From positions 320,001-384,000 of the forward strand of contig OZ244587.1 in the NCBI GenBank assembly GCA_965218095.1: a stretch of DNA of 64,000 bases, read 5' to 3'. The position numbers and the translations under genes are program-made. This DNA is from Candidatus Poribacteria bacterium. Lineage in GTDB: Bacteria; Poribacteria; WGA-4E; PCPOR2b. This document shows, piece after piece, positions 19,916-31,901 of this stretch (positions within the stretch are counted from its first letter, which is position 1; every line of letters begins with the position of its first letter). The notes under the pieces were generated by a model. It did not search any database. It was not told the DNA's origin and saw nothing but the letters and a program-made list of their open reading frames with translations.

Positions 19916-19946
19916 AAAAAGAGCCCCATGCATGATGCACAGGGCT
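19916..19946 (-). terminator. Rho-independent terminator, identical copy at 26758-26788
   Basis: AGCCCTGTGCAT..ATGCATGGGGCT hairpin followed by CTTTTT on minus strand, just after the CTD gene stop. Confidence 0.8.
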
Positions 19947-19968
19947 AAGACGCTGACAGAATAGAACA

Positions 19969-21041
19969 CTACTTCAGAATGATTAGCTTCTTCGTCGCGG
20001 CAAAGTCCCCAGCTTGCAGGTGGTAGAAATAGATTCCGCTGGAAACCGGCTCACCTGTGTCATTGCGACCATCCCAGTAAATCGCCTGCTCCTTGGAATC
20101 ATACACAGTGGCAGGCTGATGTCCGACTTTGAACGTGCGGACAACCTGACCCATCAGGTCAGAGATGGTCAACGTGACTGAAGCATCTTCTGCCAACCGA
20201 TACGGAATCTACGTCTCGGGATTGAAAGGATTGGGGAAGTTTTGAAGCAGCGCCGTCCGTTTGACCTGACCTAACGTGGTTGCCGTCAATGCAGACAACT
20301 CGACAGCAAGGGCAAGATCACCGGTCGCATCATAGACATAGGCTGAGCCGGCAGCATCATCGTCCAAAGTCGTCCCGATGATGGCGGAGTTTCTGCTGAT
20401 AGAGACGGAACCGCCGAACCTGTCCCCTGCCGCCGCGTTGCTGGCAGTTACCTTTGCCCTCTCAATCCAGGATGTGCCGCTGCGTAAAAAGGAATAGGCT
20501 GCGCCGGAATTGCTTCCGTTCTCATCGTGCCGATAGGCTCCGACGAGGGCGGCAATGTTTCCGCTGCTGCCGGTGATGGATACGGAAATTCCGAAGTCGT
20601 CACCTTTGCCGCATCACTGGCAGTGAGCTTTGCCTGCTCTTTCCAACTACTCCCGCTACGCGCGAAGACATACGCCGAGCCGACGTCCGGACGTCCAGCG
20701 TCATCATCATCTTGAGGCATCCCGGCGATGACAGTGTCCCCGCTGATGGCGACGGAACGGCCGTAGAAGTCACCTCCCTCTCCATCCTTGGTAGTGAGCT
20801 TCGCCTGCTCGGTCCAAATCCCCTCACTGCACACAAAGATATAGGCCGAACCGGACCGATCTCCGTCATCATCGTTACCCGGCGCCCCGACGATGGCATA
20901 GTCCCCGCTGATGGAGACCGAAGTGCTGAAGTTGTCATCTGCTGCCTTGTCGCCGGCGGTCAGTTTGACCTCCTCGGCGTGGGTTGTGGTTGCTTGGCAA
21001 ATCAGCAACATAGCAAGAAACAACATCAATAGCTTTTTCAT
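19969..21041 (-). pseudogene. Secreted FG-GAP-repeat protein with FlgD-Ig/T9SS-like CTD, pseudogene
   Basis: Signal peptide, SVSISGDYAIVGA repeats, QNFPNPFNPET*IPY (TAG 20209 at conserved Trp), frameshift near 20600, ends KKLIILK. Confidence 0.85.
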
Positions 21042-24809: not shown

Positions 24810-26747
24810 CTACCTTGAGCTGCCAAAGAAGATACGCATATGGATAATGTCGCCGACAATCGTCCAGAAACCTCCAACCATATACCCTCCCAAAATCAAC
24901 TCAAGAAAGAACGGCCGTGCTTGTCGGTGCAGCTTGAGCCCGCCGTATTTGAGGACAACCCACTTGGCGATAAAGCCGATAAAAACAGAGAACCAGAAGA
25001 TGTTGATGTCGTGACTATTTGAAATGGCATACCCTACCGGGTGAAACGGAAACCATAGAAATAGCCTTCGCATGACAGTGAAGAAGAGGACAACCACAAA
25101 GCCAACACCTACAGCCCCTGCCCCGGTATAGTCAAATTCAGACGGATGAAGCATCCAGTTCTGCAAGCGAATATACCCGGCGCTTGCAAACCGCTCAAGA
25201 GAGCTGCCTCCGGAGTCGAAAGCGATATGCAAATAGACCCAGAAGAAGCTGACCATTCCTATAATCAAAGCGACGGTCATCGCAAAAACTAACCCACCAG
25301 TGCCTTTTCTCATTCGATTGGCCAGGGCGAACCCTTCGATTTGATGGGGCATCGGGTGAGCGCGATAGGTAAAGTTAAAGAAATTGAGCATCGTCAGCAC
25401 TGTCAAGTTCTGGGCGCCGAAACGACGAGAACCCAAAATATCGGGTAGCACCTGGTCGGGGCCGGTAAAAACAAAATCGTGAAACGGGGCACCGAATTCG
25501 GCTCGAATTCGCGTCACGCCAAGCGAGACAAGATAATAGAGCAGAAAAAAGGTGATACTAATCCAAACAGCGAGTCCCGCCTTCTAGAGAAAAAACGTCA
25601 AAAAGCAGATACCTCCAACGGTGCCGATGAACGCGGTTTTATAGCGCATCGGTTCATGAGAATCGTCCAGTATACTGCCGCCTAGCATCCTCTTAAAAAT
25701 CGCGGTGAGATGTCTCCGGTTTGACCAGAGCGCTACCGATACGATGCCCAGCAGCGCACCAAACGATTGCTGAATCTGAACAATGGAATAAGAGCCCGCA
25801 ACGAACTGAAACCCCATTGTCACGACAAGCATTTTCTGAATCTTCCAAAACCAATAGAAAATCCAGCAAGAAAAAGACATCTCTAACGGCATAAAGAACG
25901 ACAGCCCAACCATCGGGAGGATAATCCCAGTCGGTATCCCTCCTATCGCGTTCCATGGACTAGATGTGAAGTAGGCGCCCAGGTTATGATAGTAAGGGAT
26001 CCACTTAATGGATGGGATAGTCGGAAAAATCCAACCCAAACCATTGATCAGCGCAACCCCACCTGAAATGCCAACCCCAATCCACAATCCCCTATTCTTG
26101 AAGATTGCCAGCGTCGAATCTGTCATCTCCAAAGGGAGTTGAATAATCGGATAGGATAGCTTTTCGTTTTCAACCCATGCCCTTCTGACAATCACATTGA
26201 TACAAATCATCACAAAGACGAGTACCACGACGAAAGCAGACCACCACAGACAGGGCGCCAGCCAACTGTTAATATGTTTGTCGATGTAGAGGGTTGACTC
26301 CCCCTTATAATATTCATCCAGTACATGTTTGTCGCTCACCGAAAGCCATGACGGGATATGTCGCCAGAACAACTCTCTCCACTCATTTTCGGGTGTGGCG
26401 TGGCGGAAGGGGACCTCCATGATGGTCGTCAGGGTTTGCATCATCTGGAACGATTGAATCGCAGAGGTTAAGCTTAACATAACATAGACGGTTATCAATT
26501 CTCCCTGAGTCAGGGCAAGCTGGGGCGCGAATTTCCTCAAAGGGATGTTGAGAAGCAGGAGGACACCAATAATGAAGATAACATTAAAGAAAGGGGATAT
26601 AATTGTGGGAACGGATTGATACTGGTAGGGCTGTCGAGAAATGACCAGCCAATGGGCATCGATGGGGATTAAAATCAGCCCCAGCCATACCGCGCGCGCG
26701 GAAACGACTGATGGCAGAGAAACATCCGATGAGCGTTTTGGGTTCAT
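24810..26747 (-). pseudogene. DUF6785/DUF6784-type membrane protein (putative peptide transporter) with in-frame amber stop
   Basis: WVENEKLSYPI, TRIRAEFGAP, WFPFHPVGY; ORFs 25584-26771 and 24810-25517 are in the same frame across TAG 25584. Confidence 0.8.
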
Positions 26748-27637
26748 ATCTTCCGACAAAAAGAGCCCCATGCATGATGCACAGGGCTAAGACGCTGACA
26801 GAATAGAACACTACTTATAGTTTGTATCAAATGACCCCATGAGCTAAACTAAAAGGAGATGGTATTGCCATCAACTACAATCCACTCATGGAGGTCAATA
26901 TGAAACCACAAAGCAATACAGCCTACGGTATCAACCGTCTACAATCAAAGACCGCAAGGGCAGCCATCATTCAGAAGATTTCATCAGACTTTAATCTAAT
27001 GCCACTGATTGCCGAAGCCTACTATAAACAGATTGCTTCCTACTTTGCTCAACATGCCGAAATTGAACTCACGTCAGGCCAAATCTGCTATGAGGCAGTC
27101 GCAGCCGATGAACCGGCAGGCAAACATATCGCGTTAGCGAAAAAAGTCTCATGTCAACTCACTCTCAATGATGTCCAAACTGACCTTGAGATGTTAGCCG
27201 ATTATGGGCTTTCTGGACTCAGACGCCATCGAATTCTCCGATTAACCAAACAAGCCTATGACCAAGATGCCCTGCTCAGCTATGAAGATTTAGCGGTGCT
27301 ATTAACCACCAGTCCAGCGACCGTCAAGCGCGACATTCGACAGTTGAAACAGGACGGTTACTTTGTTATGACTCGCGGTGCCAAACATGACATGGGGCCT
27401 GGCATCTCTCATAAGACTCAGATTCTGGAATTGTACTTCAAAGGGTATCAGTTCACTGAAATTGAGCAAAAGACTAATCATACCCAACGAGCGGTCTGGC
27501 GATACTTGCGCGATTTCACACAGGTAGCAAGCCTCCATCATCAAGGCTTTCCAAAGGGACAGATACGGCTCATTACGCATCTATCGGACCGACTAATTCG
27601 GGAGTATCTCTTGCTATATGATGAGTACCAACTATAT

Positions 27638-28746
27638 GAGGGGTGTGCATAAATATAGTTGACATAATCAAGCCAAAAGGGTTTCCTATTGTTATCATAG
27701 CAAAAGGAGCCCCAATATGGTACAAAGACCAATGTTGGCTGATTATGTCACTCTTATTATGCAACTCTTTGAGCAGTTTATGCAACACCGTATTGACAAA
27801 CCAGGTGTCACACACGCAAAACCATTGACATATTCAACCACCTCGTTTATCATTTTCTTCATGTTGATGCAGTTTCACGGCATCTATGGCTTCAAAACGC
27901 AATGGCGGTGGCTAATCAATCACCCAGAAGTGTTACAAATGCTGGGGTGGCAACAGCCCCCTCATCGAACCACGATTGCACGTCGCTATAAGGCATTATA
28001 TGAAGTGATAGAGGTATTTGTATTGTTTATCGGTCAGTATGCCACTGACTTGTCCCAACAATTCAACTTGGCTCATCTGGTAGCCGACAAAAGTTTATTT
28101 AAGGCACGAGGACCCGTCTGGCATCAAACTGACCGCAAAGCAGGAAAAGCACCTAAACATCTACGCAACCTCGACACCGATGCCACGTGGAGCAAGAGTG
28201 GTTATCATGGCTGGGTCTATGGCTACGGACTTCACATTATCTGCACACAAGGTGCGTTCCCAACACTGATAACTGTGCACCGTGCGTCGGTCTCCGAAAG
28301 TTGGGCGATAGATGCTAAAGCGTCTGAGATTCTGACACAACTTTCACCGCAGACACTCACTGCCGATGATGCCTATACCCAAGCAGACCGTATCCGTCGT
28401 TGGGCGAAGGCACAAGTCGCTTTGATTACCCCGGCACTTAGATGGACAAAGGGACGGTTTGCCAAGGCGTATCATCGATTTATCAACCAACCCAAGCAGC
28501 GTCTCTGTTTAAGCAAACGTCGCAGTTCGGTTGAACCGTTGTTTGACTTGATTGCTAAAGTGATAGGCACCACTCCTCAACAGAAGCAGTTACCGGTCAA
28601 GGGGTTTTTCAATGTACGCTGTTGTTTAGCTATCGGGGTGTTATCAGTGCAAGTGGCTATGATTGCCAATGCCATATGGAAGTTACCTGCTCGCAATATC
28701 TCTCATATGGCGGCTGTTTTCCAATGAACTACTATGCACACCCCTC
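27638..28746 (+). mobile_element. IS element (DDE_Tnp_1-type) nested in DUF1670 gene A
   Basis: 14-bp TIR GAGGGGTGTGCATA/TATGCACACCCCTC; 8-bp target duplication AACTATAT at 27630 and 28747. Confidence 0.92.
27717..28727 (+). CDS. DDE transposase
   Basis: VADKS, DATWSKS..GWVYGYGLH, ADDAY, RSSVEPLF. Confidence 0.9.
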   Translation: MVQRPMLADYVTLIMQLFEQFMQHRIDKPGVTHAKPLTYSTTSFIIFFMLMQFHGIYGFKTQWRWLINHPEVLQMLGWQQPPHRTTIARRYKALYEVIEVFVLFIGQYATDLSQQFNLAHLVADKSLFKARGPVWHQTDRKAGKAPKHLRNLDTDATWSKSGYHGWVYGYGLHIICTQGAFPTLITVHRASVSESWAIDAKASEILTQLSPQTLTADDAYTQADRIRRWAKAQVALITPALRWTKGRFAKAYHRFINQPKQRLCLSKRRSSVEPLFDLIAKVIGTTPQQKQLPVKGFFNVRCCLAIGVLSVQVAMIANAIWKLPARNISHMAAVFQ

Positions 28747-28831
28747 AACTATATGATGAGTACCAACAAACACAACGAATGACTCAACTCCTTCACCCGG
28801 AACCGGTTGATGCGGAAAAGGGGAACCCCTC

Positions 28832-29724
28832 ATGAGTAAACCCTTGACTCGAACCGAAGTCAACGAGAAGAAATTCAGACGCCTCAATGATAAATCCCTG
28901 CAATAGCTACTAATTCATCGCTTTATCAATTCTTACGGTTATGACAAAGGAGAAGTCACGGCGGCTGTCATTGTTGATGACATTGTCAAAACCATTGAAG
29001 GCTATTTCTTGATTGCCCTCCCCCTTGAGAAACTCGCCACAGGAGACCAAATCCCTAATCAGCGAATGCTCAGTTATGGGCAATTGGTCTGGATGGCTGT
29101 GCCGATTGATGAATACCCACAAAAAGGGAAGTCAATCGTCAAAACCGCTATGAAGCTGGTTGTTCTGACCTACCTCGCTTCTGAGGATATTGAATCCTTT
29201 CGCAACGGTTTTACTTCCCGGCAACTCAGAATCAATTGATTAGTCCGATGGTGTTATCAAGCCTATGACCAAGGCGCATTATTGACCCAACTCGACCTAG
29301 CTGTGTTGCTCAATATCTGTGATGCCATCGTCAGCGACTATGTCAATGAGTGGCAAAAAAATAGTGGAAAACTCTTGCCCACCCGGGGCAATATCCATGA
29401 TTTATCGGGAGCGATTACCCACAAGAAAGAGATTGTTACCCTCTATCTCCAAGGGCATCTGCTGCCAAAACCAGCCACTCTAAAGAAGCGGTTGACCGGT
29501 ACATTCGCGATTATGAGTCCGTTAAGACGGTTCGTGCCGCTACGGAGGATATTGACAAAATCTCTCAGATTACCCGGCTCTCCAAACGCGTCATCTCTCA
29601 ATATCTTGACCTGATTCCTCAACATTCGCTTGATGACATGGACGCTAACTTAGCAACCGAATCAGAAAGCTGTAAAGATGCCAACACCCTGTTCCGTTCC
29701 GAACCTACAGGAGACCCCCAATGA
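28832..29724 (+). pseudogene. DUF1670-like protein B, pseudogene
   Basis: QAYDQGALLTQLDLAVLL, LPTRGNIHDLSGAITHK, KTSHSKEAVDRYIRD; stops at 28904 and 29237, frameshift near 29465. Confidence 0.82.
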
Positions 29725-29791
29725 TAAAATCGGACAAACGTTGCTTAGCGTTTTGCCCAACAAAACATCGTAATTTTACTTGAAGATTGGT

Positions 29792-29820
29792 TTGACACCC
29801 GCTATCTTTTTTGCTATACT
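29792..29820 (+). promoter_or_regulatory. Sigma-70 promoter inside the right end of the DUF1670 element
   Basis: TTGACA-17 nt-TATACT with extended -10 TG. Confidence 0.75.
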
Positions 29821-29825
29821 TCGTT

Positions 29826-29954
29826 ACGCTTATATCCAAGCGTATCCATTTCTCGAAGGAGATGCGAGTTCACCCAATCCAACCCGCTCATGGGTGATGG
29901 CTGGAAGGCAATAGACATCAGCATTCCAACCATCATCTGGTCATTTGATACTAT
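29826..29954 (+). ncRNA. Putative structured non-coding RNA of the DUF1670 element
   Basis: Downstream of consensus promoter; hairpins TACGCTT/AAGCGTA, CACCCA/TGGGTG and a 14/17 stem 29893-29937; no substantial ORF. Confidence 0.35.
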
Positions 29955-31053
29955 TTCAAGATGACCATCTTACGGGTTTCCTCGTAGTCGTTGGTCGTCA
30001 GTGTGTAGAAGTACACCCTAGCTGCGACCGGTTCCCTGTGTTCGTTGCGGCCATCCCAATATGCCGCCTTCGTCCGATAGGTGTAGAAGCCCGCCTTCTG
30101 ATGCCCCAGAGCAAATTGACGCACTAACGCGCCGTTGATGTCGTAGATCGAGATCTGCACATCGGTGTCGTTGGCGAGTTGGTAAGGCATCCACGTCTCC
30201 GGGTTGAACGGGTTAGGATAGTTCTGCAACAGCGCGGTTTCTGTCATGGTTGGTCGTTGCAAACGCGGCGTGATAGGCGTGATGTGCGACGACATATCCC
30301 ACAGCAGAATCGTTCCATCATTTGCTCCCGATGCGAGGAGGGTGCCGTCGGGCGAAAACGCCACAAACTTAACCTCATACCTATGCTCTTGTAGTGTGTT
30401 GATGTTTCGGCCGGTCGAAACCTCCCATAATTTGACCGTTCCATCACCATCCCCCGATGCGAGGACGGTGCCGTCGGGCGAAAATGCCACAGAATAGACT
30501 CCATCCGTATGCCTGTGTAGTGTCGCGAGATTTCGTCCCGTTTCTACATCCCACAGTTTGAGTTTCCCCTCTTCGGGGAAGTTACCCCTTGCCCCCGATG
30601 CGATTTTTGTGCCATTGATCGAAAACGCCACAGAGTAGACCGCACCCCTATGCCCTTGTAGTGTGGCGATGTTTTGTCCGGTCGAAACCTTCCACAGTTT
30701 GACCGTTTCATCATAAGACCCTGACGCGAGGACGGTGCCGTCGGGCGAAAACGCTACAGAGTTGCCCCCATCTGTATGCCCTTGGAGTGTAGCGATGTTT
30801 TGTCCGGTCGCAACGTCCCACAGTTTAACCCCTCCTGCTTCGCCGGACTTATCCCATGACGCCGATGCGAGTTTTGTGCCGTCGGGCGAGAACGCCATAG
30901 ACTCGACTATCCGCGCATGCCCTTGGAGTGTAGCGATGTTTCGTCCGGTCGAAACCTCCCACAGGTTGATTATTCCACCCTCTGCCCCCGACGCGAGAAT
31001 GATGCTGTCGGGCGAAAACACTATATCACGGGCCGACCCTTTATGCCCTTTTA

Positions 31054-31901
31054 GGTTCTGTTGACATTTGAGTATAAGGTTGTGGCATAATAGAAGAATG
31101 ACGCCAATAACCTTACCTGATGAACAATGGAATAAGATATACCGGTTTCTTCTTAGCTGTCCCACCATCTATGTTGGCGACGAAGCTGCTACACGCCGCT
31201 TCGTCGAAGCAGTTCTGTGGGTGACTCGTAGTGGCGCTCAATGGAGACTTCTACCAGACACCTATGGCAAATGGAACACCCGCTACAAGCGGTTTGCTCG
31301 ATGGTGCGACAAAGGTATCTTCACACAGATGCACCACCACTTCGCCTCTGACCCCGATATCGAGTCGCTTATTGTGGACAGTACCATCTGCCGCGCTCAC
31401 CCGTCTGCGGCGGGCGCCTTAAAAAGCTGGCGCCTTAAAAAAAAGGGTGGCACTGAAAACCAAGCATTAGGTCGCTCTCGGGGCGGTTTCAGTACAAAAA
31501 ATCACATCACAGTTGACGGACTAGGCAATCCCCTAAGAATTCATCTGACACCCGGTCAGAGACATGACATAACTGAGGCGGAAGGGTTGATAATCGGATA
31601 TAACAGTGAATATGTGATTGGAGACAAGGGGTACGATTCGGACGCTTTTATCGCCGTTATTGAGGCGAATGGAGCAATTGCGGTGATACCGCCAAAAAGT
31701 CATCGTGTTGACCAAAGAACGTATGACAAACACTTATACAAAGAGAGACATCGGGTTGAATGTTTCATCAACAAGATAAAATGGTATCGTCGTATCTTCT
31801 CTCGGTTTGTCTCTCGGTTTGAGAAGCTAGCTGTCCGTTATTTTGGATTTCTCAGCTTTGTCGCCACTCTTATATGGCTCCGTTGAAATGTCAACAGAAC
31901 C
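31054..31901 (+). mobile_element. IS5-family element
   Basis: TIR GGTTCTGTTGACATTT/AAATGTCAACAGAACC, TA duplication; removal restores IATLKGHK of the WD40 gene. Confidence 0.93.
31098..31886 (+). CDS. IS5-family transposase (two ORFs fused in frame)
   Basis: RSGAQWRLLP, VDST, GRSRGGFSTK, GDKGYD, YKERHRVE. Confidence 0.88.
   Translation: MTPITLPDEQWNKIYRFLLSCPTIYVGDEAATRRFVEAVLWVTRSGAQWRLLPDTYGKWNTRYKRFARWCDKGIFTQMHHHFASDPDIESLIVDSTICRAHPSAAGALKSWRLKKKGGTENQALGRSRGGFSTKNHITVDGLGNPLRIHLTPGQRHDITEAEGLIIGYNSEYVIGDKGYDSDAFIAVIEANGAIAVIPPKSHRVDQRTYDKHLYKERHRVECFINKIKWYRRIFSRFVSRFEKLAVRYFGFLSFVATLIWLR

Follow-up and report, generated by a model that had tools for sequence, protein, structure and literature searches.

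Circles of IS911/IS3, IS30, and IS256 elements carry a junction promoter composed of a −35 box in one end and a −10 box in the other, and Tn916 makes use of read-through across its joined ends. IS10 has an outward promoter near its end, pOUT, whose RNA-OUT overlaps the 5′ end of the transposase gene at that same end, and its read-through transcripts are subject to fold-back inhibition. The outward-facing promoters of ISAba1, IS1, and similar elements activate neighbouring genes, and Tn7 inserts at attTn7 just behind glmS. The circular form of IS110 elements has its expression driven from a promoter at the RE–LE junction (PMC11208160).

Positions 29725–29954 of the window (the whole 64,000-nucleotide stretch of DNA that was analysed) are the non-coding right end of a two-gene DUF1670 element, an undescribed small mobile element. 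Pairs of PF07900 genes occur, in multiple copies, in 46 of 176 genomes of the phylum, and the DUF1670 family comprises 1237 representative protein clusters. The right-end module belongs to a multi-copy family of mobile elements for which full-text literature searches for DUF1670 and PF07900 returned no paper. Unless stated otherwise, features are on the forward strand of the window.

The DUF1670 element and its insertion site

The element spans 26817–29954, is present in four copies in this genome, and consists of two overlapping PF07900 paralogues, genes A and B, between inverted repeats (GTATCAAATGACC at 26824–26836, its complement at 29939–29951). The left end (26817–26843) is made up of an ATAG tip, the inverted repeat, and a CCATGAG box (26837–26843), and overlaps a weak promoter-like site, TTGTAT-17-TAAACT (26822–26850), which was recognized by eye in alignments and has TATACT in place of TAAACT in many relatives. 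Gene A (26888–27632, resuming at 28768–28835; Pfam DUF1670 match with E 6.5e-63) probably starts at the ATG at 26900, behind a GGAGG at 26890–26894. It is cut at 27633, and its 3′ end split off, by a nested IS4/5-type insertion sequence (DDE_Tnp_1, 27637–28747) that is foreign to the DUF1670 element and has 38 further full-length copies in the genome. This nested element is flanked by a 19-nt direct repeat, CTATATGATGAGTACCAAC, and a few extra bases (27614–28767); the repeat is unusually long for a target duplication, and the left tip of the nested element resembles the target.

Gene B (28832–29724) is a DUF1670 paralogue, 34% identical to gene A in an intact relative, and its frame ends with TGA at 29722–29724. 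It is a pseudogene here, with two in-frame stops (TAG at 28904–28906 and TGA at 29237–29239) and a frameshift near 29460 when set against an intact relative of 297 residues; both genes are open in relatives such as those at L048 and L073. All 12 PF07900 matches in the genome lie within the four element copies, with no intact DUF1670 gene elsewhere, and the gene B matches of all four have a TGA and a profile break at positions 168/170 in common. A copy whose gene B was already inactive was probably the ancestor of the local family; either the element multiplied in that state, or a helper was present and later disappeared. Because all four copies carry a broken gene B, the window copy is probably inert. 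The right ends of the four copies are 100% identical, and right-end DNA is found in this genome only at these copies and in one 28-nt remnant; among 61 relatives, it is present in 38.

Pfam scans of genes A and B, for both the window copy and an intact relative, returned DUF1670 and HTH families only; the IS110 domains PF01548 (RuvC-like DEDD) and PF02371 (Tnp) were absent. An AlphaFold model of protein A (pLDDT 90.7) had no Foldseek match at E 0.001 or better, and a wide VIA-align comparison gave a best Z of 7.0, with all matches being HTH or winged-helix over residues 104–251. A sequence search against solved structures returned weak HTH rows only (E 0.065 or worse). As modelled, the DUF1670 proteins are thus built of winged-helix and HTH modules and have no recognizable catalytic fold. 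In an alignment of 67 DUF1670 proteins (A2), R163 is invariant, D99, R118, D134, H175, H198, Y206, and Y240 are near-invariant, and the motif is TRG..D.G.G.SHK; these are candidates for a catalytic centre. Some members of the family are fused, with approximately 500–545 residues and two matched stretches or approximately 930–950 residues and three (examples are among P0010, P0013, P0017, P0020, and others).

The element is inserted at the 3′ end of a minus-strand WD40 gene with a C-terminal T9SS type A sorting domain (29951–31168; TIGR04183, 35 bits against a cut-off of 23), and the terminator-like hairpin of this host gene (26764–26788, minus strand) is now parted from it by the element. A TT dinucleotide is found at both junctions (26815–26816 on the left, preceded by host CTAC, the reverse complement of G+TAG; 29955–29956 on the right). 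It occurs once in an unoccupied paralogous site (19916–19977; TT at 19973–19974), which has 59 bases identical to the left flank and in which the host frame ends CTG AAG TAG. The TT fits a crossover core and a 2-bp duplication equally well. The target that the first-pass annotation had proposed, TCTTGAAGTAG, can be rebuilt from both flanks and is taken as correct because the junctions and the empty paralogous site agree. The sorting-domain gene at the empty site is split over two frames (ORFs 19969–20196 and 20209–20367), which suggests a frameshift within 19969–20367 of the window. An IS5-type transposase gene (DUF4096 and DDE_Tnp_1) overlaps the 5′ end of the open frame of the host WD40 gene (31068–31886, 30996–31300); the host gene may have lost sequence at its 5′ end.

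All five right ends in the genome adjoin the reverse complement of a gene end encoding ..M(V/L)I L K-stop on the opposite strand; on the left side, the flank starts with CTAC or CTAT and TT comes next. From 176 loci of this and related genomes, we obtained 142 distinct right junctions and 61 canonical left junctions. By a simple rule, 109 of the right junctions were assigned to the gene-end class, in which the right end meets a convergent sorting-domain-type gene at its 3′ end, 16 interrupt the palindrome GAAACCGAGTTTT-TT-CTTC-AAAACTCGGTTTC within its loop, and 17 are at other or decayed sites; on the left, 45 of 61 read R followed by TAA, TAG, or TGA on the host strand. Insertion therefore takes place inside the last Lys codon of T9SS sorting-domain genes, between AA and the R that precedes the stop, and in a single orientation. 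The CTAT tip of the element restores A-TAG, so that the host frame still ends K-stop; in the window, both the last base (A) of the host Lys codon and the stop TAG (29951–29953) come, on the minus strand, from this tip.

The second target, used by a subfamily with loci in G053, G010, G004, and G057 (e.g., L027, L048, L023, and L044), is a REP-like ‘safe’ site in intergenic DNA, where a palindrome of 13 bp (GAAACCGAGTTTT..AAAACTCGGTTTC) is entered at its loop; L024 and L040 are close relatives within this subfamily, yet are located at gene ends. At L029, the last 10 bases of the right end are repeated in the right flank (GATACTATTT twice), and at L160 the left side of the element directly adjoins an 18-nt right-end-like remnant; these arrangements may be footprints or insertions beside old ends.

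Promoter and transcribed part of the right end

A promoter-like TTGACA-17-TATACT with an extended −10, which had been reported downstream of gene B from the window sequence, was recovered at 29792–29820 and is kept in 43 unique complete relatives. It reads outward and comprises the −35 TTGACA (29792–29797), a 17-nt spacer, and the extended −10 TGcTATACT (TG at 29812–29813, TATACT at 29815–29820), matching the sigma-70 consensus at 11 of 12 positions plus the TG, with a predicted start near 29827. In the region 26500–30300, five promoter-like sites were observed against 5.7 expected from shuffles; the count alone is thus not above chance, and the site at 29792–29820 stands out because it is conserved. 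Among the 43 unique complete elements, the −10 is TATACT in 39 and preceded by TG in 42. The −35 matches TTGACA fully in 26 and deviates from it by a single base in another 14, and the spacer is 17 nt in 33. Both hexamers lie within the right end, and the distance from the −10 to the tip is 136–138 nt in 41 of the 43.

Mean pairwise identity across the same 43 elements is 0.515 in the unconserved spacer between gene B and the −35 (29725–29791), 0.59 at third codon positions of gene B, 0.78 in the promoter, 0.69–0.77 across the transcribed stretch, and 0.995 over repeat and tip. Since their identity exceeds that of the drifted upstream spacer, the promoter and the transcribed stretch are regarded as being under selection. 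On this comparative evidence, the right end carries what we consider a complete, outward-facing sigma-70-type promoter with an extended −10, under selection and placed 136–138 nt from the element tip. A terminator-like site was looked for on the forward strand up to 30300, and none was found. Assembled contigs of four sponge metatranscriptome runs contain pieces covering 29573–29958, although such contigs show neither start nor strand; the pieces stop where the element does (29956 or 29958), which is typical of repeats.

The predicted transcript (29822–29956, 135 bases) folds with a minimum free energy of −36.1 kcal/mol (z −1.86; 6 of 200 shuffles were as stable). A 5′ hairpin at the predicted transcript start (29825–29844) shows compensatory changes at all five tested pairs, including UA to GC in 10–11 sequences and CG to UA in nine. 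An alternative hairpin, CGTATC/GATGCG (29841–29866), holds TCTCGAAGGAG (29851–29861) in its loop and is missing from a subfamily with 100-nt right ends. A CTCATGG box (29887–29893), the inverted partner of the left-end CCATGAG, is followed by a large imperfect hairpin (29892–29938) just inside the right repeat, for which 88% of cells are paired in relatives and double changes were found at none of 11 pairs. The named helices overall are paired in 83% of cells, compared to 27–44% with partners slid. RNAalifold gave no consensus fold for 49 right ends (−0.43 kcal/mol, six pairs, no compensatory change), and Rfam covariance models had no match in 29725–29956; the only Rfam row in 26500–30300 was at chance level (29323–29345, E 0.58, 18.8 bits against a gathering score of 70). 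The earlier description of this stretch as about 130 nt with several hairpins is confirmed; the 5′ hairpin covaries, the large one is uncompensated, and a consensus fold is absent. A structured right-end RNA is only partly supported by these alignments.

The right end terminates in the inverted repeat GGTCATTTGATAC and the tip CTAT (29939–29954). Its repeat region equals that of the left end (repeat plus CCATGAG box), interrupted by the approximately 45-nt hairpin; the similarity of the two ends in inverted orientation reaches z 2.4–10.1 in 10 elements, and the repeat, the CCATGAG/CTCATGG boxes, and GATG..CATC palindromes are common to both. A direct-sense likeness between left leader and right end in this genome, AAGGAGATG..CAATCCA..CTCATGG (z 3.4), was dropped as genome-specific, as z was at most 1.3 in eight of nine other elements and 2.9, on a different stretch, in L060. 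A coding reading of the right end was ruled out by an unconserved ATG in CTCATGG and by single-base gaps between subfamilies, which fall inside the right end so that no reading frame is common to them.

Distant relatives were selected from 80 metagenome loci: flanked A-B pairs were present in 41, and 18 of the 41 also had a repeat of at least 11 nt. Gene B ends just 20–126 nt from the repeat in these 18 elements (20 nt in five of them), and a promoter-like site is found in the last 260 nt of only six. For four of the five 20-nt right ends, the right flank, decoded by eye, is a Lys codon followed by a stop. Some right ends of the distant clade have an approximately 20-bp near-perfect hairpin between gene B and the repeat (metagenome loci L196, L210, L215, L221, and L252), and their sister elements have no such hairpin; a right-end hairpin seems to be a recurrent but optional trait of the DUF1670 family.

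Candidate functions of the right-end module

We tentatively favour the interpretation that the right-end module could be a junction-dependent expression switch for the element's own proteins, because pairing of the repeats is predicted to free the gene A start site. In the integrated state, the promoter would fire into the 3′ end of the convergent host gene. Where the right end is joined to a left end, in an excised circle or a tandem copy, it would read across the junction, expected to be ..GATACTAT-TT-ATAGTTTG.., into genes A and B. In transcripts entering the left end from outside, the left repeat would fold onto the ribosome-binding site and start codon of gene A, so that translation would be blocked. 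The right repeat of a junction transcript is synthesized ahead of the left repeat and would pair with it, leaving the start site free.

The left repeat and box are complementary to the stretch with the GGAGG and ATG of gene A. Three transcripts were compared in silico for the mean unpaired probability of the SD–AUG window of gene A: the one predicted for the element itself (0.49), read-through entering from the real flank (0.25), and the one running from the outward promoter across the junction (0.44). Accessibility is higher in the junction than in the read-through transcript in 41 of 43 elements, a count that overstates independence because the 43 are relatives. Shuffling the 20 nt of the right repeat lowers the value to 0.24, with the native sequence higher in 42 of 43, and in the window copy the unpaired probability of the AUG changes from 0.01 to 0.61. 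In the distant clade, the arms are still complementary by eye although their sequence differs (CCGTGGT/ACCACGG instead of CCATGAG/CTCATGG), with a weaker difference in accessibility at 11 loci (0.56, 0.38, and 0.49 for own, read-through, and junction transcripts).

Several observations count against this switch or leave part of the module aside. That complementary repeats pair is physically trivial. The distant elements have no comparable promoter, and the conservation of approximately 90 nt between the 5′ hairpin and the repeat is left unexplained. The outward promoter is not needed for basal expression, because the left end has its own promoter-like site. The exact 26-nt junction pattern was not found in metagenome contigs and matched once in genomes, at a left end adjoining an 18-nt remnant that resembles a right end, and a right-left joint was not seen in the assembled RNA contigs of the four metatranscriptome runs. 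If true, the switch would represent a novel means of limiting expression of insertion sequence genes to the state in which the ends are joined, combining a whole promoter in one end with RNA anti-fold-back from the terminal repeats.

Rather unlikely is that the promoter serves as an outward antisense or shielding promoter, which blocks or processes convergent host read-through or whose RNA pairs with the 3′ end of the host mRNA; a transcript antisense to the host gene was the alternative offered in the first-pass annotation. The insertion parts the host gene from its terminator, so that transcripts of the host gene would continue into genes B and A in antisense; the stranding of the host hairpin on the far side of the element, the prevalence of convergent sorting-domain-type genes at right junctions (109 of 142), and the failure to find a terminator-like site on the forward strand up to 30300 all agree with such a role. 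It does not explain, however, why the transcribed 130 nt are conserved, elements in the intergenic palindrome loop carry the same module, and an element that restores the host Lys-stop would seem ill served by silencing the host gene. The conserved blocks might instead be DNA sites for the DUF1670 proteins in a transposition-end architecture, with an RNA that has no role and a promoter that is a passenger or merely helpful, which we judge to have a similarly small chance. The motif types common to both ends and their inverted similarity (z 2.4–10.1 in 10 elements), the large hairpin devoid of compensatory change, the absent RNAalifold consensus (−0.43 kcal/mol), and the multi-HTH proteins are in line with this. 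Binding sites alone fit poorly with a −35, −10, TG, and spacing that are kept promoter-like while spacer letters vary, and covariation at five of five pairs in the 5′ hairpin is a sign of a single-stranded form. Less probable still is a regulatory RNA acting in trans, which would pair with transcripts entering the left end and affect translation or stability of the gene A mRNA in a copy-number-dependent manner. Its complementarity to the left end (13 nt plus 7 nt, CTCATGG/CCATGAG) is given, and competition with the fold-back helix, as predicted, would operate equally well in trans; on the other hand, the left repeat lies upstream of the start of the left-end transcript predicted for the element itself, which hence would offer no target, and neither a defined 3′ end nor a terminator for a small RNA was found on the forward strand up to 30300.

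The main idea of the first-pass annotation, a guide or bridge-like RNA from the right end that picks the insertion site by base pairing, is the explanation to which we give the least credence. In its favour are the long non-coding end that has its own promoter, a strict choice of site with the same dinucleotide found at either junction, proteins lacking a recognizable catalytic fold, a hairpin loop matching the target at 9 of 11 positions, and a large-hairpin loop, AAUAAACAUCAG, that resembles the consensus flank AATCAACATCTT. Yet 13 groups of three to eight copies have identical 170-nt right ends next to flanks that differ at a mean of 1.9–7.3 of the first 12 bases, and the target letters in common, ..AT.A.CAT.., are those fixed by the host protein motif. 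Covariation of loop segments with the insertion site, which the annotation had named as the way to check its idea, comes down to a single clade split: RNA–target mutual information (107 junctions, 56 unique RNAs) beats permutation only via one clade split between target classes, in scattered columns, and for class 1 only (76 junctions) the maximum is borderline (0.279 against a permutation 95th percentile of 0.261), at wobble positions that are scattered and not diagonal. The 9-of-11 match involves TCTCGAAGGAG, which sits in the hairpin that is missing from seven unique right ends of the 100-nt subfamily, copies of which are still at the same kind of gene-end target. The likeness of the large-hairpin loop to the target was also rejected: the target weight matrix, run against whole elements, scores it at 5.9 bits, which is not exceptional, and it never ranks first in the element concerned, reaching the top three in 10 of 43. 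The short right ends of the 18 distant elements and the absence of an Rfam match and of IS110 domains in the proteins also stand against an RNA guide. The element ends, on the donor side, are invariant among relatives, and the covariation analysis covers the target side. Of the signs whose absence the annotation had named as refuting its idea, target covariation was not found by mutual information and a consensus structure was not found by RNAalifold, although one hairpin covaries; the idea is regarded as largely refuted. Most likely, the target is chosen by the multi-HTH DUF1670 proteins and not by the right-end RNA, and a long promoter-bearing non-coding end combined with strict site specificity is not enough to call an element RNA-guided. 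A very improbable variant is that the right-end transcript is a fixed, non-programmable scaffold or recognition RNA, a cofactor helping the two multi-HTH proteins bring the ends to the gene-end target; this would explain why approximately 130 transcribed bases are constrained like coding sequence in this clade.

Comparison with described mobile elements

IS110/IS1111 bridge RNA/seekRNA elements and the DUF1670 element agree in several points: a sigma-70 promoter lies in a long non-coding end, insertion is strictly site-specific, the targets are repeated ‘safe’ sequences, the same dinucleotide is found at each junction, and expression is tied to a right-left junction (PMC11208160 for IS110; proposed here for the DUF1670 element). 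The DUF1670 element differs in that its promoter is complete within the right end and not rebuilt across the junction. Furthermore, DUF1670 proteins lack a DEDD/RuvC-like or Tnp domain, neither a two-loop RNA nor covariation with the target was found in DUF1670 right ends, and relatives manage with right ends down to 20 nt. Overall, the element resembles IS110 in outline (PMC11208160) and lacks those defining IS110 features that could be tested.

Like Tn7, the DUF1670 element uses a conserved gene end, most likely read by protein, as a harmless landing site, but its machinery is entirely different, and its insertion point is within the last codon, which it restores together with the stop by means of its tip. 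It is also like ISAba1 and IS1 in having a complete promoter close to its end that reads outward; activation of adjacent genes cannot be the selected role here because what adjoins the element is nearly always a convergent gene, facing it with its 3′ end.

The junction-dependent switch that we propose for the DUF1670 element would be comparable to insertion sequence circles and Tn916, in which joined ends switch on or boost the element's own genes. Unlike in those circles, the whole promoter lies approximately 137 nt inside one end, and the proposed switch would be an RNA pairing of right with left repeat that frees the ribosome site. As in IS10, an outward promoter is located near an end and a terminal repeat is predicted to sequester the start site in transcripts from outside; unlike in IS10, the promoter is at the opposite end and has only the repeat (13 + 7 nt) in common with the left end. 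By analogy, the module would thus work most like junction-activated expression of insertion sequences and the fold-back protection of IS10.
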